A DNA stretch of 64,000 nucleotides, from positions 18,013 to 82,012 of the forward strand of contig JAGXOC010000001.1 of NCBI GenBank assembly GCA_019894665.1, written 5' to 3'. Positions within the stretch are counted from its first letter, which is position 1; each line of letters opens with the position of its first letter. Below are positions 16,619-30,642 of the stretch, one piece after another. Under the pieces are notes generated by a model, which worked only from the letters and a program-made list of their open reading frames with translations, was not told the DNA's origin and ran no database searches. The stretch is from Candidatus Thorarchaeota archaeon (GTDB lineage Archaea; Asgardarchaeota; Thorarchaeia; Thorarchaeales; Thorarchaeaceae). Position numbers and translations under genes: made by a program.

Positions 16619-17696
16619 GATAAGCATCAAGTATTCGCCTGTTTCGAAAAAATCTTCAGACATCAAGGGTATGAGTGAACTTGCAATGATCAACGAGCTG
16701 ATGGAAATATCTGAGAAACTTGCAAATGATCGCAAGCAGAATCCAGTACTGCTGGCACGTATGGAGTTTGCATGTAAGGGACAGTCACCTCGGTTTCTCA
16801 TTATTTCACCCGTCACTAGGAGTGGCCAGGATTTACAGCTGTTCAATATGAGCATGGGGGATGCATTTCATGCTACGCGGATCCCGGGACATGCTTTGCT
16901 TCCGCCTGACTTTGCTCCAACTCTATTCAAAGGACCTGCGTCATTTAATCGCGACTTCCCTCACCAGAAAGGTGTGATTGTAACCTTTGATATTGATGAG
17001 CCATTGGAAATCATTAGAGAAACCATTGAGAACATATCACTTCATCACGATTTGAATACACTTCCACTTATTGCCTTTCAGATAGATTATCAAAATGGTC
17101 GAGTAAAACTCATTGTGCATGGTAAAGGACGCACCTACGAATATGAGAACATATTGCTATCTCGAATTAGAGTGCCTGATGAATTGGATAATGACCTTCT
17201 TGTTCTTATTTGTTCAGACTCTAGAGTTCATCCACCACACTCAAACAACGGCATCCCAATGGCAATACGAACTCTCGGTGGATATGTTCCTGAATACAGT
17301 GGGAATCATGATGAGACAGAACAACTAAACGAATTTTTCCAGAAATGGCTGTCTTCTACTGGTAATTCAAAGATAATTCTCGTTGTAGCTCATGGTAACT
17401 TTGAAGGAGAAGGAGATTCCTGCGCGGCTGGAACTGCATCGCTGAATCCAGATACAATATCAAACCCCTCCCTAAAACCCACCATAGAAGAGTTAAAGCG
17501 AGCTGCCGAGGAATTTGAAAGTGGTCCACCCAGGAATCCAGAAGATCGCGTAAAGTCATTATCAAAAGCAACTCGAGCTAATCTTCTAACTTACCCAGCG
17601 ATTGCAGATGCAGAGAGTATGTTCCAACTCACAATAGATGAACTATTGATGGATACAGTCACTAATACGCTATCTCAATCTGACATTTTCGAATAA
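16590..17696 (+). CDS. hypothetical protein with a divergent beta-carbonic-anhydrase-like motif
   Basis: LVLICSDSRV matches the CxDxR zinc-ligand motif of beta-CA. A second His/Cys region (VVAHGNFEGEGDSCAAG) has non-canonical spacing. An alternative start at 16671 (MSELAM...) would remove the overlap with nnrE. Confidence 0.35.
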   Translation: MDQPGLYRSRISIKYSPVSKKSSDIKGMSELAMINELMEISEKLANDRKQNPVLLARMEFACKGQSPRFLIISPVTRSGQDLQLFNMSMGDAFHATRIPGHALLPPDFAPTLFKGPASFNRDFPHQKGVIVTFDIDEPLEIIRETIENISLHHDLNTLPLIAFQIDYQNGRVKLIVHGKGRTYEYENILLSRIRVPDELDNDLLVLICSDSRVHPPHSNNGIPMAIRTLGGYVPEYSGNHDETEQLNEFFQKWLSSTGNSKIILVVAHGNFEGEGDSCAAGTASLNPDTISNPSLKPTIEELKRAAEEFESGPPRNPEDRVKSLSKATRANLLTYPAIADAESMFQLTIDELLMDTVTNTLSQSDIFE

Positions 17697-18367
17697 TGAC
17701 CAGAATATGAAACTACTAGGTCCTCATATTGGTCCAGATCAAGTATGAATGAATTCAGTTTGAAAACTGGTACAACCGGTACGCCCTCATGAAGTTCTAC
17801 CTCTTCGACTAACCAAGTCACAAGTACCGGGAATAACCTGTATTCCTTCTCAACCAGCGTTCTCATCTTCTCTGAGAGCCTAACTAATTCTTTGGTCAAT
17901 TCCTGTGTTCGCTTCTTCTGTTTTTCAGCTGCTGTTTTGAGAGCTGATGACTTGCCACTTCTAATACTCCACATCTTCGCGTCAATTGCAATGATGATGT
18001 TACCCTTCACACCAATAACATCAATCTCCATCCCATGGATCAAAGAATTACCTCGTCTGCGGTAGCTCTCAACACATCTGTAGCCGTTCGCTGACAGGAT
18101 TGTTGCGACAAACCCTTCAAAATCTTTCCACGTCAATAAATCGACCATGTCAGCTATACTAGCGCCCTCCTTTACCCCCCTCATCGCTAAATCGATTCTC
18201 TCCGTTCTAGTAATGTGGATAAGGCTCCCGTTAGGCATGAACAGCCCAATTTGTTCCAACACTTTTTCCGTGAGTGAATCCGTAGATGAAATCTCTCCAC
18301 CCTCTTTTGTTTGCTTGAGAACTTCTGTAATAGTATGGATAATTTCAGACGGCATTGTCATATTCAA
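17675..18367 (-). CDS. restriction-endonuclease-fold (Mrr_cat-like) domain protein
   Basis: WKDFEGFVATILSANGYRCV ... GMEIDVIGVKGNIIIAIDAKMW matches the Mrr_cat pattern (FE..v..ll...Gy.v ... D.GiD.i ... QcK), which carries the D-(D/E)xK nuclease core. Confidence 0.5.
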   Translation of the reverse strand: MNMTMPSEIIHTITEVLKQTKEGGEISSTDSLTEKVLEQIGLFMPNGSLIHITRTERIDLAMRGVKEGASIADMVDLLTWKDFEGFVATILSANGYRCVESYRRRGNSLIHGMEIDVIGVKGNIIIAIDAKMWSIRSGKSSALKTAAEKQKKRTQELTKELVRLSEKMRTLVEKEYRLFPVLVTWLVEEVELHEGVPVVPVFKLNSFILDLDQYEDLVVSYSGHYSKMSD

Positions 18368-19024: not shown

Positions 19025-19438
19025 ATGCCCATCAACATCGGGTCTCGAACACAAAAGGTGACTGCCATCCAGATGGTGACTGCGAAATTAAGTCACGAGG
19101 TGAATGTGTTCTTCAGTGACCGTAAGGTCTCGACGACTGCTTTTCAAAGTCTTGCTGCATCGTTCTTCAGACTAGCTGATGCTAGGTTGAGTGATACACA
19201 GAAGCAGGTACTACGAATGAGTCATGAGCTGCTCAAACATCGCGAGCTGACTCTGACAGCTCTTGCAGACAAGGTTTCGCGTCGAAGTACTCTTCCTTAT
19301 AGTACATGTAAGTGGAATCTCCGTGCTCTGAAGAACATGGGACTTCTGAATGGTGGAAATCTGAACAGTAAAGGACAGTTCGCCTGTCTGACCGCTGAGG
19401 CCCAGATGTTGGTAGACTACCTAGAGGATGACCTCTAG
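19025..19438 (+). CDS. putative winged-helix transcriptional regulator
   Basis: wHTH-like segment QKQVLRMSHELLKHRELTLTALADKVSRRSTLPYSTCKWNLRALKNMGLL. Confidence 0.45.
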   Translation: MPINIGSRTQKVTAIQMVTAKLSHEVNVFFSDRKVSTTAFQSLAASFFRLADARLSDTQKQVLRMSHELLKHRELTLTALADKVSRRSTLPYSTCKWNLRALKNMGLLNGGNLNSKGQFACLTAEAQMLVDYLEDDL

Positions 19439-19473: not shown

Positions 19474-19828
19474 AATCAAGCTCTCAACAGAAGACACCGG
19501 GTGCTACCCAGTTCTCACCAAGAACTGCTATGCTTTTCGTTCTTGGGTCATCGTATCTTCTTATCGAATAGATTCCATCCTTGGAGAATGAGAGCCTTGA
19601 CCTCTTCAAGACTGGTCGCCGATGCAATGATGATGGCAACGGATCTACTTTCTCCGGGATTCAAGTTTCCAAGATTCCACTGGAGTCCAGTCGCCACATC
19701 CATTGGCCCGAGTTCGAGATTGTTACGTAGATTCGGGGCGTCTTCACTGATTTGGATCTTCGTAGGCCACTCTGATATATACGTCATGAAATTTAGATTA
19801 CAAATACGCCGTTTCACACTTCATAAAG

Positions 19829-21106
19829 TTGATAAACCACCTACAAATCCCACACAGGACCGGGTGGATTTTTCCTATGACTAACCTCAATGTCGAACAA
19901 CTCGAGAAATGGTATCGAAAACAGCTCAGAGACAAATCGAAAGATTTCATCAAACAAGCTGAGAAGAGCTATAGGATTGTAGAAACTGCTCTAAAGGACA
20001 TTGAGGAAGTATCACAGCAGTTTAAGGAAGAAGAAGAAGAGGAACTTGAATCTGGAGGCATTGCAGCAAGATTCGCCTTAAAAGTTGGCGAGATAGTTTC
20101 TGACTTCTATGTTGACAAAGATATTACGTATGAGAACACTGAAGCTATGCAGAGTGAGATTCAGCACTTCATTCAGGAACTATGGGGTGCAGGAGCTCGC
20201 TGGATTCGTAGGATGGATAAGCGTTACAAGAATGTGATTAAGAGTCTAGACACATTCATGAAGGAACTCGCTCGAGAAATGAATAAGATAAGCAAACTGC
20301 TATTCGAGTACAGTTGGGTCAAAGAGCTAGAGAGAATCGGCGGTCGCATTGAAACCCTACACGATTTGACATTCAGCAAGGAGATATTCGAAGAACAGAT
20401 TCGGCAAGTTCGTCGCAAGATTGATAATGCTCAGAAAGAATATGATTCAGCTAAGAAGGCATACGATGATTTTACCAAAGCCTCCAATGTTTCAGAACTA
20501 CTTAATCTTGATGAACAGGCTGAACATATTAATAGCCTCCTACGAATGAAACTAAATCCTTTGAAGAAACAGGTAAAGAAATTCTTCCAACACGACACTG
20601 GCGTTCGAGTTGGACCTCCAGGCCAGAAAGCTCTGACTGAGTACTTTGAAGACCCATACACAGCGATAACAGAAGAATCTGAAGGATATCCCGGACTTCT
20701 TGAGGGACTAACAGGACTACAGGAAGCAATCGAAACCAAGAGGTTGCCCCTTAAAGATCGACTCGCACGACGGGCTATTGAAGAGGTAGAATCTATTCGG
20801 AAAGGAGGATTGCAGAAGCTCCAAGATCAAGCAAAGGAGATCGAAAACAAACGTGACACTTACGCAGGTTCTGATGTGTATACTCAAAACGAAGCATTCC
20901 AGAGCGCTCTGAATGAAGCTACGAAGAACCTGGAATATCACAGCAATGACCTACTTCGAATCAGGGATGATATCACGAGACAGATTGACAAGGTGAAAGA
21001 ATTCAAGGGTCGCGTCGAAACTGAGATTTTTGATGCTTTTAGTGAGAAAGTTACCGTACAGGTGGAAGTCAGTCTTGAACCATTACTAGACCTGTGTAAA
21101 CTCTGA
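19829..21106 (+). CDS. coiled-coil protein, unknown function
   Basis: Long charged, heptad-like helical sequence (EEEELESGG...; RKIDNAQKEYDSAKKAYDDFTKAS). No enzymatic motif. A more likely start is the ATG at 19878. Confidence 0.5.
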   Translation: MINHLQIPHRTGWIFPMTNLNVEQLEKWYRKQLRDKSKDFIKQAEKSYRIVETALKDIEEVSQQFKEEEEEELESGGIAARFALKVGEIVSDFYVDKDITYENTEAMQSEIQHFIQELWGAGARWIRRMDKRYKNVIKSLDTFMKELAREMNKISKLLFEYSWVKELERIGGRIETLHDLTFSKEIFEEQIRQVRRKIDNAQKEYDSAKKAYDDFTKASNVSELLNLDEQAEHINSLLRMKLNPLKKQVKKFFQHDTGVRVGPPGQKALTEYFEDPYTAITEESEGYPGLLEGLTGLQEAIETKRLPLKDRLARRAIEEVESIRKGGLQKLQDQAKEIENKRDTYAGSDVYTQNEAFQSALNEATKNLEYHSNDLLRIRDDITRQIDKVKEFKGRVETEIFDAFSEKVTVQVEVSLEPLLDLCKL

Positions 21107-21110
21107 AGTA

Positions 21111-21950
21111 TTGGGGATAGTGGTTTTGAGGATCCTAGTGACTTCTGAGCAAGATATTGCCAGCTTGACAATCAAAGACATACTTCTCAGTGATCATGGA
21201 TTTTCTCAAACCGACGAGTCATTTGAAGGGAATCCCATTTTTTCCAATGGCAGAAACGCCAAGGTCATAACGACCAATCGTGACATGATTCATTGTGACC
21301 ATCTCGAAACTCATTTTGATAGCGAAGTGTTCATCTTTTGTTCTAGACATCGTGCTGAATCTGGAAAACCCGCACTGCTAGTTCATAGCACGGGAAATCT
21401 TGGTAGTGAGGCACTCTTTGGTGGGACACCTCATCATCTTTCTGTTTCCGCTCCTTCTCTTGTTTCCGTCGCACTCAAGAAACTGTTTGAAGAACGAAAC
21501 AAAACTGGGTTAGATGAATTTGATGTGTCATTAGAAGTGACGCACCACGGTCCTACAATAATGAAGACCCCACTATTGTTTGTGGAGCTGGGAAGCTCTG
21601 AGGAGTACTGGACTCATCAGGGTGGTGCTAAGGCAGTGGCTGCTGCTGCAATGGATTGTGTTAACGAACCATTGTCTGGTGACGCTGTTATTGGTTTTGG
21701 CGGCACCCACTATGCTAGTAAGTTCAACAAGATAGTATTAGAGAAAGGCTACAAGATTGGGCACATGGCTCCAAAATATGCTATCAATGGTCTGACATCT
21801 GATGTCCTCAATCAAATGATTACCCATTCAACAAATCCAATCGTATCTGCTATTATAGATTGGAAAGGAATGAATGCTGAAAATAAAACACATATTCTTC
21901 CGATGTTAGAAGATGCCAATATTGAAGTGATTCGAGCAAAGAATGCGTAA
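21111..21950 (+). CDS. putative archaeal-type D-aminoacyl-tRNA deacylase (DtdA/DTD2-like)
   Basis: Size about 280 aa. Motif region FCSRHRAESGKPALLVHSTGNLG resembles the SRH...H.GN region of tRNA_deacylase proteins. Assigned from memory of the family. Confidence 0.4.
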   Translation: MGIVVLRILVTSEQDIASLTIKDILLSDHGFSQTDESFEGNPIFSNGRNAKVITTNRDMIHCDHLETHFDSEVFIFCSRHRAESGKPALLVHSTGNLGSEALFGGTPHHLSVSAPSLVSVALKKLFEERNKTGLDEFDVSLEVTHHGPTIMKTPLLFVELGSSEEYWTHQGGAKAVAAAAMDCVNEPLSGDAVIGFGGTHYASKFNKIVLEKGYKIGHMAPKYAINGLTSDVLNQMITHSTNPIVSAIIDWKGMNAENKTHILPMLEDANIEVIRAKNA

Positions 21951-22076
21951 TTTCGTAGTAAAGCTGAGTTTCTTTACATCAATTACCTCCTTCTTATTGG
22001 CTATATTACGTTCCCGAAAGGCTAATTACTCTCCCTGACACTGACGAACAATATCGCCATCTTAGTAGGGGATGCT

Positions 22077-23039
22077 ATGGTCACCGAGAAAAGCGATGCT
22101 GCTATTGAAGAAATCCAAGGAAAAGTAGACAAACTTTCTGTGGAACTTGCTAGTATACGTGAGGAGCTAACAGTGCTCACTTCCGTACCAGAAATAGACA
22201 AGAAAATTGACACTCTTAGTAAGAGTGTTGAGAAGGTTTGTGACGCTAAGGAAATTCAAGAAGTTGGAAAGAAGTTAGACGATCTGGCTAAATCGTTGAA
22301 GGGATTGGACCAAACAAAGAAACTGGACGATATCACAAAGTCAGTCATAGCGATTGACTCGACTGTGAAAGAAGTCAATGATTCCAAAGAGTCAGCTGTC
22401 ATCATAAAGAAGATTGATGATATTCTTGTGTCTCTGGCTGACAGTGAATCTGTACCAAAGAAATTGGATGACCTTCAGAATTACGTTGCAGGGCTTTCAG
22501 GTATAGAGGAGAAAGTTCAGGACCTCGCAGGCCAATTTGAAGAAACAAAAGAGATTGTGGGGATTATTGTTCGCCAACTGGATGATATTGAGCGGAAATA
22601 TAATCTGGCAATCGATAGGGTCACAGAGGCAGTTGACACACTCACCGACTTCATTAAATCCGGGGTTGCTACTTCATCTGAATCTAAGACACCTACGAAG
22701 AAACCCAATGAAACCATAGATGAAGAGAAACCCAAAATTAAACCTCCATCCACGGTTAATTTGCCATCAACCATTGACGCATTAATGGATAACCTGATGA
22801 CTCTGGTGATCCCGCAGACTGAAGCAAAAGAGATGGCTGAAGCTCTTGAGGAAGTGCGTGATGAGCTTACTACAATGATTAGGGGACACACACCGGTACT
22901 CTTCCAATTTGGTAAACGCGCTCGTGAACTGAAATCATATCCGCCAACTGCGACATTGAATGAAAATGATATTGCTAGTCTAAGTCGTGAAATCAAATCA
23001 TGGAAAAGCAAACTCAAAGAAGTGACTAGCAGTAGCTGA
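22077..23039 (+). CDS. coiled-coil protein with at least 5 tandem repeats of about 35 aa
   Basis: Repeats: KKIDTLSKSVEKV / KKLDDLAKSLKGL / KKLDDITKSVIAI / KKIDDILVSLADS / KKLDDLQNYVAGL. Confidence 0.55.
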   Translation: MVTEKSDAAIEEIQGKVDKLSVELASIREELTVLTSVPEIDKKIDTLSKSVEKVCDAKEIQEVGKKLDDLAKSLKGLDQTKKLDDITKSVIAIDSTVKEVNDSKESAVIIKKIDDILVSLADSESVPKKLDDLQNYVAGLSGIEEKVQDLAGQFEETKEIVGIIVRQLDDIERKYNLAIDRVTEAVDTLTDFIKSGVATSSESKTPTKKPNETIDEEKPKIKPPSTVNLPSTIDALMDNLMTLVIPQTEAKEMAEALEEVRDELTTMIRGHTPVLFQFGKRARELKSYPPTATLNENDIASLSREIKSWKSKLKEVTSSS

Positions 23040-23195
23040 ATTTTCCCGACTCGGACCTGAAAAATCGAGGTTCCTGTTACATAGGTTTATCTCAGTAAAA
23101 CCACAATGCGCAACGTGACTCACTTTCGGTGATTATACCGTAAACGAGAACAAATAGAGCTGGACCGGTCCAACTCTAGCAGATACAATATTTCA

Positions 23196-24017
23196 ATGGA
23201 TTTGACATTCATGAACCTCAAGAAACACAAACAAGAGCTAGCAGGCAGGATTGGTCTTCTAGATGTTGTAGCTGATAATCAGTTAGCCCTTGAGTTAATT
23301 GAGTTGCACGAGAAGAAGTGTATTATTTGCCAAGAGGATAGACTAAGTTGCACTGTTAGACCTTCATGTATGAACAGGAATTTCTTGAATGCCCTCATTG
23401 AGATAGGTGTCACACCACAGGACCTACCTAGCTTTTGTTATAGCCAGTACCTTGAGCAGATACGACGGTTTATCCTCGAGAAGAGAGGAAGAGAAATGAT
23501 AGATAGAAGAATTCCAATCAAGGATTTACTTTCGACTTTGAATGTGAGTTCTATCCGTCACTTCACAACCAAATTCAAGAAAGTCTGGAAGAACTTCTCC
23601 TCGGCACTTGAGGACAACGAAGTGCTAGTTATAGGAGATAGTTTGATCTTCAACTTTGATTTTGCGAGAGGGATTGTCACACTCAATCCGATACATGACC
23701 TAATCGACAATTTCAAGATTTTTAATCTCTACTCTCAGATTTTCTCGAACCACTTTGAACTAAAATCTAGTGTTACTGATTTAACTCTGAACTGGTGGCT
23801 TCTCTCCATTAGTGTAGAAGGCCACACACAAAGTAGTGCAAAGAGTCAACTGAAGGTTGGGTCACTAAAGGGCTTTGATGCTGTTTACACAACTGAGATT
23901 GAAGATTCGGTAAAAATTCAAGCTGAAGTCATTGCTAGGAACGAATCATCATCTCTCGAAGTAGGTCAATTGAGAGACCTGTTCCAACGAGTATCAAAGT
24001 TTGAGAAGCAAGACTAA
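23196..24017 (+). CDS. hypothetical protein with an N-terminal Cys cluster
   Basis: CIICQEDRLSCTVRPSC near the N-terminus. No known domain. Confidence 0.45.
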   Translation: MDLTFMNLKKHKQELAGRIGLLDVVADNQLALELIELHEKKCIICQEDRLSCTVRPSCMNRNFLNALIEIGVTPQDLPSFCYSQYLEQIRRFILEKRGREMIDRRIPIKDLLSTLNVSSIRHFTTKFKKVWKNFSSALEDNEVLVIGDSLIFNFDFARGIVTLNPIHDLIDNFKIFNLYSQIFSNHFELKSSVTDLTLNWWLLSISVEGHTQSSAKSQLKVGSLKGFDAVYTTEIEDSVKIQAEVIARNESSSLEVGQLRDLFQRVSKFEKQD

Positions 24018-24074
24018 GCTGACAAAATGCTGTACAAGGGTACAGTCCAATATTGTTAGTGGTGGGATGCACAA

Positions 24075-27000
24075 ATGAGTGATGAAGCAGTTACGGAAGT
24101 AGTATCCGTATTGAAAAAGAATCTAGGCATCACGGATGTCGAGTCCAAGGTAATACTACCTGTTTACCTTGGTGGGAACATGACCGCTGGTGGAGTGTCT
24201 CTCATGTCAGGTGAGAAACTACCCACGGTCAAGAAAACCCTGAAGCGACTTGTTCAGAAGGGAATGGTCAAAGAGATAGATGGCATAGTTACAATATATC
24301 GTTCTGTGCCCCCGAACTTAGCACTATCAGATAATCTGTCGTCCTTCTTGGGTGACGTTCAAAATCTGACCGAGTTATCAGAGAAGACCTTCAGCTCAAA
24401 AGACGAAGATATTGACATTAATGTTGAGAAGGTTATCACTTCTCAGGATGAATCACTAGAAACTGTCAGAACCTCTCTCGCCAAATATGAGGATGAAATG
24501 CTGGATCTAGTAGGCAGTCGCATTGATCAAGTCAAAACTACCGCTACTGCAGTGATGGGTGCTCTCTCTGAAGACATTGAGGACATTATGAACAAGCTAG
24601 ACTCATCGCTAGATAACAGACTGGGAGCCAAGCTCACTGAATTACAAGGTGAGATTGACAAGAGCCAGGTAGGATTAGAAAAAGATGCGAAACGAATTTC
24701 CCGTGAGTTCGATAAATGGTTGAAAGTTGAAAGAAAGACCACGTTAGTCACAATTTCGGAATTTGAAACCAAAGCTCAATCACTCATAGGTGTCGCGCGG
24801 GACGCAGTCACCAAAGCGCTTGAAGCATCCTCCGCTGCGCTACAGAATATCACTCAAGAAATGACAAAGGCACTGAGCTCGATGACTTCCAATGCATCCG
24901 ATAAAGGAGTCGAGATTCTCAATTCAGTGTCAGAAGACCTCACTACTCTTCTTGCTCATTTGGAAGCTGAACTAGCCCATACTTACTTAGCTAGTCAAGA
25001 ATCTCTACGAGAAGTAATGGCTCAAGCACGAACTATACCCACCGAGTTCGGAGATTTCACAAAGAACAAGATAAACGCAGCAGTTGATATTGTTGAAGGT
25101 GTGAGTAGAGATGTTGATGACTGGAAAGAAGAAGTATCTAATTTTATGGACGTGGCATCCCAATCCGTGACTTCACAACTTGAACAGGTAGCATCTACAG
25201 ATGCGAACTACATAGAGGTGCTTAAAAATACTCTCACATCACACACAGAGAAATTGAACGGAATGATTAGTGAAGAATATCATCAAGTACAAGGTCTTGC
25301 AACAACCCTTGGAACTGATTGTGAAACTACACTTGCGGATACTCGTGTTCTGGTGCTAGAACTCCTAGAGAAAGAAAATGCAACAGAGCAAGCAGGGTGT
25401 GATGAAGCAGCTAAGACACTCCACTCAGAACTTGGTAATTGGGTACAAGGCACTGTACAAAACATCGAGAAGAATATGAAAACAACATCTGATGATATTT
25501 CCACTATTCTTGATACAGAATCTAGCGAGTTAAACTCCCTTGCTGCAGCGATGAATAGTAGATTGAAATCCGCATTCAATTCGATCATCAAATCTACAAC
25601 CACAAAGAATGAAACATTGATCACCTCAGTCAAGAAAACAACGCATGACTTTGAGGCAAGTGTTGGAACACAACTGGTGAAACTGATTGGAAGTTTTGCT
25701 AATACCACAGAGAAACAAGTTCTTGATTCAAGGAAACTCTATGAACGTCTGAGAGGTCGGCTTGACAAACGAATGACTGAGAGAGTCACTACGATAAGTT
25801 CTCAGGCCGATAGAATTGAAACTGAAATTGAAGCAATAATCACGCAACAAGTAAATCGAATTGACCAACACACTTTGGGCATTCGTGATGAGTTTCATAC
25901 ACGCCTTGAAGACATAACCCGTCAATTCATTACCCTGACCCAAGGTATCGAAGCGACTTTCAATGGTCTCCTTTCTAGTCAGACTGTTGAGGCTCGTGAC
26001 TTAATTGCATCAACTCATACAGAGTTTAAGACCGCTATGAAATCTGAAATGGTTGGTCTAAAGGAAGACTCTGTGAAATTGCAGCAGGAGTACTCTACAG
26101 AGCTTGGACTCAAAATCGATGAAGTCACTTCATCAATTGCTGGCGTGAAACACGCACTTGAGGAGATATCTGTTCAAAAGCGATTTGAAATCTCAGAAAG
26201 TATGGCTAAGGCTCTTACCACTCTGGAAACTTCAATTCGGAGTACCGAAGATAATTTGCGTCAGATGGAAACTGGCATCATCAATCAATTCACAGAAAAC
26301 CTTGATCAGGTCAGTCAGGAATTCCATGTTACTGTTGATGGTACACGTGATACTATCGCAGAGCGTTTAGATAATGTTCGAGCGGTAACAACAGATGCCA
26401 TAGAGAAAAGTAGTACAGCTGCGCAAAGAGCGGCTGATGCATTTGTTTCAGAACAAAAGGACCACAAGCAGCGACACTTGGCTGATACTAGCAAGAAGAT
26501 AAACCGCCTTGCTACAAAACTAGTGAAAGCATCTAAAGTAAAAATCGAGGAATTCCGTGCTGAACTTTCCGAATGTGAAACTGGTGGAGTGAAAGGTAGG
26601 AATTCAACAAAAGAGGAGATTATTCGAGCCGTTGAGGAACGGAGAGCGGAAGTAACGCAAGCATTCGATGCTGCTTCAGTTTGGGTTGACTCAACAGTTT
26701 CCAACCTGGGAACATCACTAGAAACCTTTGGATCCAAACTTGGTAACGACCTTACATTGATGCAAAGAAATCTCCAGAAAGCAGCTGAGGAAGCTTCTGC
26801 AGCTGTAATTGAACGTGGAGATGCAGATATTGACAAACTAGCAGAGATTACAACGACGCTCTTCGAAGACGCGGAATCCACTGTCACTGCTCGAATTGAT
26901 GACTTTGGAGGCAGTTGCGCTAATGCTTTAGTCAAGGGTAACGATGCATTCACCTCAATGCCTAATACTATGACAGAAAAAATTGAAGAAGTTGACAATG

Positions 27001-27968
27001 TAATCATCAAAGAAACAAATCAAAACTACAGCAAGGTGGCTGACAAGCTATCATCTTCATTTACGGAATTCCAGCGATCTGCTGAATCAGCTTCTGAAGA
27101 GTTTCGAAATCTGCTTGAAAAATCTTCAATTCAGACAACTGAGAAACGGAACGAGGCAATCACAGCCATACAAGAGAGTGCAAATCTGACCAACCAACAT
27201 GCAGCACGAAAATTGGAAACAATAGGCTTGGAGTTAAAAACACAGCTCAGTACTCAATCCTCAACTTTGATTGAGAAAACTCAATCTGATCTGGCTGCCA
27301 AGAATCTAGTCCTAACTGAAGCTGTCACTGATGCAAGCAATCAATCGAGTGAAGGAGTAACTCTGCTCCGACAAACACGAAGCGATGCGCTCTCTGCGTT
27401 CAGTGATCAGGTGGATAAATCATTCCGACGATGGTCAAATACCCAGAAAATGGAGATAGCCTCCTTGAGTGAAAATGTACAGGAAACCATAGCTGGAGTC
27501 ACCGAATTGACTTCAAAAGCTGTTGGTAATCTCAATGCAATCCATGAAGCAAGTGAAAGAATGCTTGATGTTTCGACTAGCAGAACCTGGTATCTTAGTG
27601 GGACTCAGGAGGCCTGTGCTCATATCGGTGACATGGTCCGTCGAGCCGAAGAATCGGTCGTTGTGGCAGTTCATGATGTGTCATGTCTAGATTTGAAGAA
27701 CCTTGCGAGGATAAAGACTCCTAAAAGGAGAGTTCTCATCGTACCTGAAACAGAAGATCCAGAAACAGTTCTCGAAATTATGGCTGGCTGGCGTGTATGG
27801 CAGACAAAAACTCCAATGCTTCTTTCGGTTATTGATGATCGTGAGATTCTTATCGGAGGTGCAAGAGATTCGGACTCTCCAATAGCGGTAGTTTCCGATG
27901 ATGCTTCATATCTCAAGCTTTACCATGATGTTTTGGGTCCGCAGTTAATTCAAAACAAAGTATCTTGA
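24075..27968 (+). CDS. giant (1297 aa) coiled-coil protein: N-terminal wHTH-like domain and a C-terminal globular domain
   Basis: The N-terminal 75 aa resemble a TrmB/MarR-type wHTH (VILPVYLGGNMTAGGVSLMSGEKLPTVKKTLKRLVQKGMVKEIDG). More than 1000 aa follow with a Q/E/K/L/T-rich helical pattern. No Walker A, so not SMC/Rad50, and no MCP signalling core. Last ~150 aa non-repetitive. Confidence 0.6.
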   Translation: MSDEAVTEVVSVLKKNLGITDVESKVILPVYLGGNMTAGGVSLMSGEKLPTVKKTLKRLVQKGMVKEIDGIVTIYRSVPPNLALSDNLSSFLGDVQNLTELSEKTFSSKDEDIDINVEKVITSQDESLETVRTSLAKYEDEMLDLVGSRIDQVKTTATAVMGALSEDIEDIMNKLDSSLDNRLGAKLTELQGEIDKSQVGLEKDAKRISREFDKWLKVERKTTLVTISEFETKAQSLIGVARDAVTKALEASSAALQNITQEMTKALSSMTSNASDKGVEILNSVSEDLTTLLAHLEAELAHTYLASQESLREVMAQARTIPTEFGDFTKNKINAAVDIVEGVSRDVDDWKEEVSNFMDVASQSVTSQLEQVASTDANYIEVLKNTLTSHTEKLNGMISEEYHQVQGLATTLGTDCETTLADTRVLVLELLEKENATEQAGCDEAAKTLHSELGNWVQGTVQNIEKNMKTTSDDISTILDTESSELNSLAAAMNSRLKSAFNSIIKSTTTKNETLITSVKKTTHDFEASVGTQLVKLIGSFANTTEKQVLDSRKLYERLRGRLDKRMTERVTTISSQADRIETEIEAIITQQVNRIDQHTLGIRDEFHTRLEDITRQFITLTQGIEATFNGLLSSQTVEARDLIASTHTEFKTAMKSEMVGLKEDSVKLQQEYSTELGLKIDEVTSSIAGVKHALEEISVQKRFEISESMAKALTTLETSIRSTEDNLRQMETGIINQFTENLDQVSQEFHVTVDGTRDTIAERLDNVRAVTTDAIEKSSTAAQRAADAFVSEQKDHKQRHLADTSKKINRLATKLVKASKVKIEEFRAELSECETGGVKGRNSTKEEIIRAVEERRAEVTQAFDAASVWVDSTVSNLGTSLETFGSKLGNDLTLMQRNLQKAAEEASAAVIERGDADIDKLAEITTTLFEDAESTVTARIDDFGGSCANALVKGNDAFTSMPNTMTEKIEEVDNVIIKETNQNYSKVADKLSSSFTEFQRSAESASEEFRNLLEKSSIQTTEKRNEAITAIQESANLTNQHAARKLETIGLELKTQLSTQSSTLIEKTQSDLAAKNLVLTEAVTDASNQSSEGVTLLRQTRSDALSAFSDQVDKSFRRWSNTQKMEIASLSENVQETIAGVTELTSKAVGNLNAIHEASERMLDVSTSRTWYLSGTQEACAHIGDMVRRAEESVVVAVHDVSCLDLKNLARIKTPKRRVLIVPETEDPETVLEIMAGWRVWQTKTPMLLSVIDDREILIGGARDSDSPIAVVSDDASYLKLYHDVLGPQLIQNKVS

Positions 27969-29014: not shown

Positions 29015-29584
29015 ATGGTGCGGGGGTTTGAAAGGATGATGCCAACTGACAAGAAGAAGACCAGTAAGAAGAGTGGAAAATCAAAGTATCTCTTCAAGAT
29101 CACGGTAGTAGGTCCTGACGATTCGCTCCTAGAGGATGTGCTTTCTACATTTGACCCAGTGGTAAAAGTAGATGGAATACGAATAGTATCCGCGGACCAT
29201 TCCACAGATGACTCAGATGTTCGAGCAGTCTTTATGTCTCCGAAACATGCAGTACTTGACATTCTCCTTTCTCTAACGTTCAAAAGTGCTAGTGCAGTGA
29301 TTATTGTTTTGAGAGGCTCTGACCCCGAGTTGGAAACTATATACAGAAATGAGATTCGTGAAAATCTGGGTACAAAAATCCCCACACGCGTAGTAACGGT
29401 CGAGTCTGCGCTTGATAAGTTCAAACGCACTGAGATACATCACATCTTTGATGAACTGATGGAAGAGATTCTTGCTCAGAGAGAGAAGGAACATAAAGCC
29501 AAAGAGAAGAAGAAGAAGGAAAAGGGCGAGAAGCAGAAAGAGAAGACCAAGAAGACAACGACTAAGAAAAAGAAGAAGAATTGA
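29015..29584 (+). CDS. hypothetical protein with a degenerate GTPase-like N-terminus and a poly-lysine C-terminal tail
   Basis: KYLFKITVVGPDDS resembles a G1 strand but lacks the GxxxxGK[ST] P-loop. C-terminal KEKKKKEKGEKQKEKTKKTTTKKKKKN. Confidence 0.45.
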   Translation: MVRGFERMMPTDKKKTSKKSGKSKYLFKITVVGPDDSLLEDVLSTFDPVVKVDGIRIVSADHSTDDSDVRAVFMSPKHAVLDILLSLTFKSASAVIIVLRGSDPELETIYRNEIRENLGTKIPTRVVTVESALDKFKRTEIHHIFDELMEEILAQREKEHKAKEKKKKEKGEKQKEKTKKTTTKKKKKN

Positions 29585-29628: not shown

Positions 29629-30642
29629 TTGGTGTCAGTAGTGGATTCAGATAAGAAAAGATCAGATGAATACTGGATGGGTGTCCGTGATGCACTACGG
29701 ATGGTCGATAGTTTTACCAAATGGGCAAGAAGAAATGAGAGTCGTGCTAAGAATCTTGATGATTTTATTCACGATGGATTAGTTGCAGCGGCGAAACGCT
29801 GTGAGTCTTGTCTGAAAGATGACTTGGGCCTCACCTTCGTGGAAGACGAAGAGTCAGTTGATGGATCCACAGGAGATGAACAGGTACCATCTGGTTATGA
29901 GATTGGTTCTTCTTCTAAAGATTATTCAGAGCCCGAAAAATCATCAGAACCCACTTTTGGAGGAACTCCCGAAGACATGGCTACTGAAACTTCGGAAGTG
30001 CCAATTGAATCTGAAAGTGATAGCATTAGCATTGACAATGTAAGTCGTCTTGAGGAGGAAGAGATGGATGACCTGTCAATAGATGGACCTCCACGCGAGT
30101 TCACATCAGATTTTGAGCTTGTTGAGCCTACCGATCTTTTTGTCGACATGTCTGAAGCTACAGCTGAGGATGAAGTTACACACGAACCAGAAGCAGAGGA
30201 AGTAGAACCTTCAGATGCCGAGAACAAACCTTCGTTCACTTGGGCTGATTACGAAAAAGCCGTGACTCCGGATACTGAGGGTCCCGAGATTGTTGAAGAA
30301 GATGAAGCTGACGAGATTCCACCTCCTATTGAACTGGAATCTGTAGACACACCAGTACCCTTTGATGAACCGGAGCCAATATCCGAAATGGTGGAGATGC
30401 CTGAGCCACCCCCAATTCCTGCCGACGAGTCAGAGCTAGCCTCAGAACCGATGAAAGTATCTGAGCCGCCCTCAATTCCGACAGATGAGTATGAGAGCGA
30501 ACCAATTGAAGAAGAAACCGTTGAAACGACAGAAGCGCCCGACCCTATAACAGAACCACCCCCACCACCCCCACCTCCAGATAGAGATGAGGATGAAGAT
30601 GAGCGACGACGTCGAGCTCGCAGACTCTTCTTCGGGGACTAA
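29629..30642 (+). CDS. acidic, proline-rich, probably disordered protein with a small N-terminal helical domain
   Basis: About 60-aa N-terminal domain, then an E/D/P/S-rich sequence with repeats (EPPPIPADESELASEP / EPPSIPTDEYESEP), a PPPPPPPP stretch and an Arg-rich C-terminus. Confidence 0.5.
   Translation: MVSVVDSDKKRSDEYWMGVRDALRMVDSFTKWARRNESRAKNLDDFIHDGLVAAAKRCESCLKDDLGLTFVEDEESVDGSTGDEQVPSGYEIGSSSKDYSEPEKSSEPTFGGTPEDMATETSEVPIESESDSISIDNVSRLEEEEMDDLSIDGPPREFTSDFELVEPTDLFVDMSEATAEDEVTHEPEAEEVEPSDAENKPSFTWADYEKAVTPDTEGPEIVEEDEADEIPPPIELESVDTPVPFDEPEPISEMVEMPEPPPIPADESELASEPMKVSEPPSIPTDEYESEPIEEETVETTEAPDPITEPPPPPPPPDRDEDEDERRRRARRLFFGD

Follow-up and report, generated by a model that had tools for sequence, protein, structure and literature searches.

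A giant TrmB-like protein with a hendecad rod of fixed length and predicted antiparallel pairing in Thorarchaeota and other Asgard archaea

Introduction

TrmBL2 is an abundant, sequence-unspecific chromatin protein of archaea (PMC4158304, PMC8707338), and has been proposed as the archaeal analogue of H-NS (PMC8707338). In TrmB the linker helices pair antiparallel between the subunits, with F81 against I91', F84 against L88', L88 against F84' and I91 against F81', and the DNA-binding domains are swapped between the two chains (PMC4158304). Here we analyze a gene for a protein of 1297 amino acids (aa) that appears to be built on the same plan, and that we refer to as the giant. It lies in a window of 64,000 nucleotides from Candidatus Thorarchaeota archaeon (assembly GCA_019894665.1, contig JAGXOC010000001.1, positions 18,013 to 82,012 of the forward strand); all coordinates below are those of the window.

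The giant has in common with TrmB (3QPH, 2F5T) and TrmBL2 (5BPD) an N-terminal winged helix, an amphipathic helix of the antiparallel-pairing kind and a phospholipase D-like (PLD-like) domain, and like TrmBL2 it is missing the sugar-binding beta-subdomain (PMC4158304). It differs from TrmB in the linker helix, which comprises about 1080 residues instead of about 30, follows a strict hendecad pattern and has a fixed length, and in having a conserved partner gene whose product carries five cysteines. Moreover, Tyr50/Asp51 of TrmB are replaced by Lys/Lys, and if the long helix pairs between chains, the winged helices would be some 160 nm apart and not on adjacent major grooves.

Two other groups of chromosome-associated proteins invite comparison. 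In SMC, Rad50 and MukB, and in the archaeal SMC-like proteins ClsN, Sph and arcadin-4, a very long antiparallel coiled coil joins nucleic-acid-binding ends, as in the giant, for which a chromosome-organizing role is plausible. The giant, however, has neither an ABC ATPase head nor a hinge or zinc hook; its center is a continuous hendecad helix in place of interrupted heptads, and there is no kleisin-type partner. H-NS forms an antiparallel coiled-coil dimer that places DNA-binding domains at opposite ends and thereby bridges DNA, but its fold and sequence are unrelated, and its coiled coil measures tens of residues against about 1080.

Results

The giant protein, 100% identical to NCBI KGD60_00225 from a Candidatus Thorarchaeota metagenome-assembled genome (MAG), begins with a TrmB-type winged helix-turn-helix (wHTH), as a preliminary description of the locus had proposed in terms of a TrmB/MarR-like domain. 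The match to Pfam PF01978 over residues 13-81 scores 35.2 bits against a cut-off of 25.6 (E 1.1e-8), the N-terminus aligns with residues 12-141 of P. furiosus TrmB (3qph), and a winged helix of the same type is present in relatives from the Frey-, Odin-, Hel- and Baldr- lineages. The C-terminal domain is non-repetitive, as anticipated, and is alpha/beta in an AlphaFold2 (AF2) model. It corresponds to the PLD-like N-subdomain of the TrmB regulator domain: Pfam Regulator_TrmB matches 6 of 12 orthologous C-terminal domains at profile positions 3-97 of 233, and fold comparison recovers TrmB, while a profile search against PDB sequences returned no match. The catalytic HxK(x)4D motif of PLD enzymes has no match in the 1297-aa protein, and since the chain ends about 127 residues past the rod, the sugar-binding beta-subdomain (G320/E326 in TrmB) is absent. 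With both ends of TrmB type and this subdomain missing, the protein is a TrmB-family member of TrmBL2-like architecture, with about 1050 additional residues in its linker helix. A known family thus accounts for both ends, which goes partly against the preliminary description, where an assignment of this kind had been expected to tell against its reading. Its exclusions hold good: motif scans of the 1297-aa protein found no Walker A ([AG]x4GK[ST]) and no CxxC, Pfam and NCBIfam gave no SMC or AAA match, and there was no Pfam match to MCPsignal at E <= 0.1, so that the protein is neither of the SMC/Rad50/MukB type nor a chemoreceptor.

Between these domains lies a helical rod in which hydrophobic residues recur with a period of 3.664, i.e. 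11/3 (power 833 against a median of 3.4), a sharp hendecad pattern instead of the heptad-like helices first described. The phase is constant over residues ~345-1140, with a lone one-residue shift near P322. Leu, Ile, Val or Phe fill core positions a, d, (e) and h, Thr and Ser abound on the acidic surface, and BLAST detected no internal sequence repeats in the rod. An AF2 model of residues 98-1297, computed from 56 sequences, consists of helices 99-610 and 618-1163 followed by the alpha/beta domain, and bears out the earlier claim of more than 1000 residues of helix; its overall confidence is moderate (predicted local distance difference test, pLDDT, 64; predicted template modeling score, pTM, 0.27), with the minimum at the single break. 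The amphipathic helix begins at residue ~82, as it does in TrmB, and appears to share the antiparallel pairing of the TrmB helix. The a-d-e-h core, the 11-residue repeat and the nearly straight helices also recall the stalks of tetrabrachion and of trimeric autotransporters. Those stalks are parallel, extracellular and tri- or tetrameric, whereas the giant is predicted to be cytoplasmic and antiparallel and is flanked by TrmB domains.

The length of the rod is almost invariant. The alignment of nineteen full-length homologs, the most distant at 33% identity, is free of internal gaps, and among 131 full-length family members, reaching down to 20% identity, 130 are without any insertion or deletion in residues 82-1163. 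The sole exception is a deletion of one residue, in a member at 20% identity. Tested relatives from other Asgard lineages have a period of 3.66-3.67, with the power at 3.5 at or near background.

Four signals in the alignments show, at the level of sequence, that residue i is coupled to residue ~1240-i, antiparallel about residue ~620. First, the conservation profile mirrors itself. The smoothed raw profile gives r = 0.65, and after detrending r = 0.47 at S = 1238 (S being the sum i+j of paired positions), the global maximum among 500 axes. The axis thus lies at i+j = 1238-1240. Reflection leaves the core set {a,d,e,h} unchanged only for S ≡ 8 mod 11, a series that includes 1240; the residue-level mirror correlation of hydrophobicity cannot select one axis, as all S ≡ 8 mod 11 score alike. 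Secondly, mutual information with average product correction (APC), calculated from 95 non-redundant sequences (effective number, Neff, 61), peaks on the antidiagonals S = 1232-1244 with z up to 4.3. Twelve of the 15 top covariation antidiagonals fall within 1228-1244, and no comparable peak was seen at parallel offsets. Thirdly, conserved islands in the outer arms are matched across the axis: 8 of 14 at S = 1239-1242, compared with 1.6±1.8 on other axes, the pairs being E139/R1102, G184/K1055, L190/G1051, D195/R1045, W350/L889 and E353/K888. Only the outer arms discriminate here, counts of conserved-column pairs over the whole rod being dominated by the dense center. Fourthly, a Thorarchaeota subclade, represented by the P0088 cluster and by L058 (6001-10557), carries a tandem duplication of 231 aa which split-sequence BLAST centers on the axis at residue ~620. 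The copies are 60-71% identical, and a random segment of 231 aa would be so well centered in <1% of placements. With the duplication the protein would possess two tips, or else its rod would gain about 35 nm in length. Around the axis itself, the central core residues F607, L611, I614, F618, T622, I625, F629 and L633 are in phase and unbroken.

The gene immediately upstream encodes a 273-aa protein and belongs to the same module. In five of eight non-orthologous Asgard loci with differing neighbors, a homolog directly adjoins the giant gene: in Freyarchaeota (L060, E 1e-37), Baldrarchaeia (L065, E 8e-33), a further lineage (L059, E 1e-28), Helarchaeota (L062, E 6e-28) and, in divergent orientation, Odinarchaeota (L063, E 7e-19). 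No homolog was found beside the three paralog-type giants, namely P0137 (Lokiarchaeota), P0163 (Thorarchaeota) and P0201. As the 273-aa gene alone stays adjacent across lineages, we consider the conserved module to consist of two genes. Earlier the 273-aa protein had been counted among the coiled-coil proteins, but its AF2 model (pLDDT 86, pTM 0.83) is alpha+beta, with low confidence only at residues 54-59. C42, C45, C52, P56, C58, R61, C81 and N164 are invariant in the family. The residues of the cysteine cluster are invariant in 26 sequences, four non-Thor lineages among them, and the cluster is a putative metal (Zn or Fe-S) site. Fold searches returned no significant structural neighbor for the 273-aa protein; its C-terminal alpha+beta modules gave weak matches to PCD/DCoH, type III secretion chaperones and YbjN.

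Spacers between the two genes are 5-90 bp long. In Thorarchaeota loci a conserved Shine-Dalgarno-like GGTGGGAT lies 5-8 nt ahead of the giant gene's start codon, and in other Asgard loci GGAGG-type sequences precede it; a short spacer with such a site is consistent with co-transcription. The inverted repeat in the spacer, which reads CTGACA...TGTCAG in close relatives, could be an RNA hairpin or a protein-binding site. Just upstream of the gene pair, a DUF4139-like gene is found in two non-Thor loci (L059 5855-6871, L060 5201-6589), and an Orc1/Cdc6 gene directly precedes the pair in a Helarchaeota locus (L062 3677-4975).

A scan with one genome per species yielded 56 loci that carry the giant, apparently as a single copy per genome, almost all of them in MAGs labelled Thorarchaeota (lineage names throughout are MAG labels). 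An exhaustive profile search yielded 291 representatives, about 28 of them full-length Thorarchaeota proteins of 1285-1313 aa. Weaker matches of the same architecture and with a periodicity of 3.66-3.67 occur in other Asgard lineages: Freyarchaeota (P0123, 1302 aa; one cluster member is labelled Sigynarchaeota), Odinarchaeota (P0209 and P0234, 1306 and 1304 aa), Helarchaeota (P0139, P0128 and P0160, 1245, 1123 and 1732 aa), Baldrarchaeia (P0129, 1238 aa), Lokiarchaeota (P0137, 1089 aa) and 'Promethearchaeota' (P0201, 1907 aa), besides P0124 (1307 aa) and P0135 (1308 aa). On further classes such as Heimdallarchaeia a homolog search with an alignment of distant giants, swamped by low-complexity words, is uninformative. 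We did not find the family described in the searchable literature. There is also a second paralog class of 1089-1140 aa, with the same order of wHTH, hendecad rod and PLD-like domain and a C-terminal motif GRGNIRVR (P0163 at L064 5001-8423, P0137 at L061 6001-9270), which has no 273-aa neighbor. It occurs in Lokiarchaeota and in a Thorarchaeota MAG (SDNO01, cf. L040) that also carries an ortholog of the 1297-aa protein.

The features of the locus are collected in Table 1. Coordinates and plus strand of the five open reading frames originally listed (four genes and DtdA) were verified. Within the first frame the gene most probably starts not at 19829 but at the ATG at 19877; the resulting 409 aa fit its orthologs of 408-412 aa. 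The interposed gene is indeed an archaeal-type DtdA (Pfam tRNA_deacylase, 5e-63).

Table 1. Features of the giant-protein locus and its surroundings, in window coordinates.
Feature	Position	Strand	Basis or remark
230-aa protein gene	17675-18367	-	upstream of locus
137-aa wHTH protein gene	19025-19438	+	upstream of locus
Remnant of 234-aa gene	19548-19817	-	homology 19551-19766
409-aa gene	19877-21106	+	start from ortholog lengths; syntenic only within Thorarchaeota
DtdA	21111-21950	+	Pfam; syntenic only within Thorarchaeota
320-aa gene	22077-23039	+	open reading frame; syntenic only within Thorarchaeota
273-aa conserved partner gene	23196-24017	+	new family, no Pfam match
Cys cluster, residues 42-81 of 273-aa protein	23319-23438	+	C42-x2-C45-x6-C52-x3-P56-x-C58-x2-R61 ... 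C81
57-bp spacer, 273-aa gene to giant gene	24018-24074	+	Shine-Dalgarno-like GGTGGGAT; inverted repeat CTGTAC-N4-GTACAG
Giant TrmB-family rod protein gene, 1297 aa	24075-27968	+	open reading frame verified
TrmB-type wHTH, residues 13-81	24111-24317	+	Pfam PF01978
Hendecad (11/3) helical rod, residues 82-1163	24318-27563	+	~98 hendecads, net charge -61, 2 Pro
Segment duplicated in 1532-1537-aa variants, residues ~505-735	25587-26279	+	231 aa = 21 hendecads
Most conserved part of rod and symmetry center ~620, residues 590-650	25842-26024	+	conservation, mirror axis, covariation
PLD-like domain, TrmB type, residues 1171-1297	27585-27965	+	degenerate HKD motif (QTK...DD...GG)
189-aa protein gene	29015-29584	+	adjoins 337-aa gene
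337-aa protein gene	29629-30642	+	

Among the neighbors, the 409-aa protein shows very strong conservation, with identities of 55-86% within the class, and a weak similarity to the C-terminal four-helix bundle of Vps28: PF03997 matches 6 of 18 orthologs at scores below its cut-off (best E 2.3e-3), and in a PDB profile search the Vps28 C-terminal domain 2j9w ranks first with a weak E of 0.061. Asgard proteins with a Vps28-C domain have been described (PMC10936438), and the 409-aa protein may be one of these. The 320-aa protein is built of modules: a helical N-terminal part that varies in length among orthologs and contains KK[IL]DD motifs, a Pro/Thr/Lys-rich linker at residues ~195-230, and a near-invariant C-terminal domain (residues ~270-300, TPVLFQFGKRARELKSYPPTATLNENDIA) without family assignment. 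Repeats had been noted in this protein, and five KK[IL]D[DT][LI] motifs do exist (at residues 42, 65, 81, 111 and 128), although their spacing is 16-30 aa and not a tandem ~35 aa.

Upstream of the locus, the 230-aa protein has a weak match to an Mrr-type restriction-endonuclease domain, and the 137-aa wHTH protein is weakly related to TK0271-family activators. The remnant next to it consists of the final 72 codons, at 82% identity, of a gene for 234 aa. This gene is intact in ~40 other Thorarchaeota loci, where it lies between a small wHTH gene and the 409-aa gene, and has been reduced by deletion in the present genome; L010 has a different internal deletion in the same gene. Downstream, the 337-aa protein is hyper-acidic, Pro-rich and of low complexity, contains the run PPPPPPPP and ends in the basic tail RRRRARRLFFGD, and the 189-aa protein has a Lys-rich C-terminal tail. 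The order of these two genes is kept across Thorarchaeota, and neither has a family assignment.

Discussion

We tentatively favor the explanation that the giant is a homodimer. Two continuous helices from two chains would pair antiparallel into a straight rod of about 160 nm (1082 residues at ~0.15 nm each), and the heads at its two ends would be domain-swapped, each combining one chain's winged helix with the other chain's PLD-like domain. In this way the dimer would keep its two DNA-binding heads a constant distance apart and would bridge or space DNA over a long range, with the 273-aa protein as its partner; if the heads also associate with each other, a nucleoid scaffold would result instead. 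Pairing between chains is preferred to pairing within one because the in-phase core is unbroken, because TrmB sets the precedent, because no Pro occurs in the rod center, and because the turn that AF2 proposes is weak: the break falls in the helix-favoring LEDITRQ, where confidence is lowest (~40). The 273-aa protein would be a dedicated and probably co-transcribed partner of the giant. We suppose that it could act as an assembly or register-setting factor, or as a metal- or redox-dependent regulator that binds the center or the heads.

This explanation should be interpreted with some caution, since several points weigh against it. The AF2 model of the monomer is a hairpin, at the moderate confidence given above, and all four pairing signals fit an intramolecular hairpin equally well. 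The covariation set is small, and symmetric conservation could inflate the signal in spite of the APC. A single winged helix at each end is unusual, as DNA binding of the TrmB type uses two. Y50/D51, the DNA contacts in the recognition helix of TrmB, are not conserved and align with K53/K54 in the giant; in the consensus of the giant family the position equivalent to Tyr50 is variable. The rod, with its net charge of -61, is so strongly acidic that it will not bind DNA itself, DNA binding by the head is predicted from homology, and the gene neighborhood offers no functional hint.

The serious rival is an intramolecular hairpin, which we regard as possible but somewhat doubtful. In that case the chain would fold back at ~615-620 into an antiparallel two-helix arm of ~80 nm, at whose base the chain's own winged helix and PLD-like domain would sit together. 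The highly conserved tip of the arm would serve for interaction, perhaps with the 273-aa protein or with a second tip. Two hairpins could dimerize through their heads or zip into a four-helix bundle, like the cytoplasmic domains of chemoreceptors or the arms of SMC/Rad50. This would accord with the AF2 monomer, which has exactly two helices and a break midway, and with the duplication, which would simply add a second self-contained hairpin. Furthermore, conservation is maximal at the center, as in chemoreceptor tips, and the near-invariant F629-N630-G631 lies close by. The likeness to the hairpins of methyl-accepting chemotaxis proteins (MCP) extends to long antiparallel helices, a conservation peak at center or tip and symmetric changes in length, but the giant has no membrane segments and no MCPsignal match, its period is 11 and not 7 residues, and its head is of a DNA-binding type. 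What speaks against a hairpin is that the hendecad core and its phase run straight through the supposed turn, from F607 to L633, where confidence in the model is lowest. In P0105, P0139 and other lineages the center contains no Pro, and Gly is not obligatory there, the FNG (NG) motif being lost in P0105, the most divergent member, and the family precedent, TrmB, pairs its linker helix between chains.

For the inter-chain dimer, a DNA bridging or spacing function is what we infer from the heads and the rod. The basic KK/KR recognition helix without the Tyr50 of TrmB suggests low sequence specificity, as in TrmBL2. A chromosome-organizing or scaffold role had already been suggested from the combination of a DNA-binding-type head and a long rod. 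We find it the most reasonable reading; TrmBL2, the closest protein by architecture, is a chromatin protein. The proposed four-gene system is not supported as a unit.

That the giant is instead an ordinary TrmB-type transcription factor for local genes, with the rod as a mere dimerization or sensor element, is improbable. It would agree with the family membership and with the palindrome that the spacer carries ahead of the giant's own start codon. However, the effector (sugar-binding) subdomain is missing, the Tyr/Asp used by TrmB for recognition are not conserved, and these terms hardly account for a rod that strictly keeps its length of 1082 residues among proteins as little as 20% identical. 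With antiparallel pairing between chains, moreover, the winged helices would be too far apart for a palindrome.

Very improbable, in our view, is the proposal of the preliminary description that the genes for the 409-, 320-, 273- and 1297-aa proteins make up one cytoskeletal or scaffold system. The four lie on the same strand, their order is kept in all Thorarchaeota loci with enough flanking sequence, and the 409-aa and 320-aa proteins are mostly helical. Yet the collinearity spans the whole neighborhood of ~24 kb, with radical SAM, proteasome alpha and RimK genes at one end and ThiF and aminotransferase genes at the other, unrelated housekeeping genes included, even where giant proteins share 33% identity, and synteny within Thorarchaeota therefore proves nothing. 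Outside Thorarchaeota the order is not kept: no 409-aa or 320-aa homolog lies beside the giant gene in five other Asgard loci searched (L059-L063), and DtdA does not stay there in the Asgard loci with differing neighbors. Furthermore, DtdA is interposed and, with a gap of 4 bp, tightly coupled to the 409-aa gene, and the 409-aa protein has its independent weak similarity to Vps28. One candidate for a break in synteny, the 'complete chromosome' locus L052, was set aside as uninformative, since stretches of N, either masked sequence or gaps in the assembly, border the gene there.

The least probable alternative is that the giant is an amphipathic helix that coats lipids or membranes, resembling perilipin-4, apolipoproteins A-I, A-IV and E or late embryogenesis abundant (LEA) proteins, unfolded in solution and folding on lipid surfaces, and linking membranes or lipid bodies with DNA or a regulator, as might be read from the 11/3 period over hundreds of residues, the Thr/Ser-rich composition, Pfam Apolipoprotein A1/A4/E matches in six stretches (PF01442 77 bits, cut-off 90; above cut-off in Odinarchaeota P0209) and a rod profile match to insect perilipin-4 (E 3e-15). 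Against it stand a periodicity that has no repeat unit and shows none of the copy-number variation typical of lipid-binding 11-mers, a nearly indel-free rod with site-specific invariant residues, mirror symmetry and covariation that indicate specific helix-helix pairing, a core of 60-67% large aliphatic or aromatic residues with an acidic polar face and no Lys at the interface, and the net charge; the likeness is one of pattern and not of homology, and the perilipin-4 match reflects shared periodicity only.

In conclusion, the constraint on length itself needs explaining, given 1082 residues that are nearly free of indels to 20% identity and total lengths of ~1300 aa in several classes. If the dimer model holds, the rod would be among the longest uninterrupted coiled coils of prokaryotes, of near-perfect hendecad regularity, and thus useful for coiled-coil structural biology. 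A wider possibility, which we consider unlikely, is that Asgard archaea share an ATP-independent, non-SMC chromosome organizer: a rigid, antiparallel hendecad rod of ~160 nm, nearly constant in length like a ruler and bearing a TrmB-type DNA-binding head at each end. A dedicated metal-binding partner would assemble or control the rod, which would keep DNA segments at a constant distance from one another or from some other structure. Were this true, it would be a prokaryotic counterpart, in principle, of the fixed-width chromatin scaffolds of eukaryotes. Very little is known about DNA organization in Asgard archaea beyond histones, and a conserved, apparently single-copy, length-constrained rod with predicted DNA binding and a dedicated partner provides a testable nucleoid candidate. 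If our model holds, the lineage closest to eukaryotes has converted a small transcription-factor scaffold of the TrmB/TrmBL2 type into a long-range structural element.

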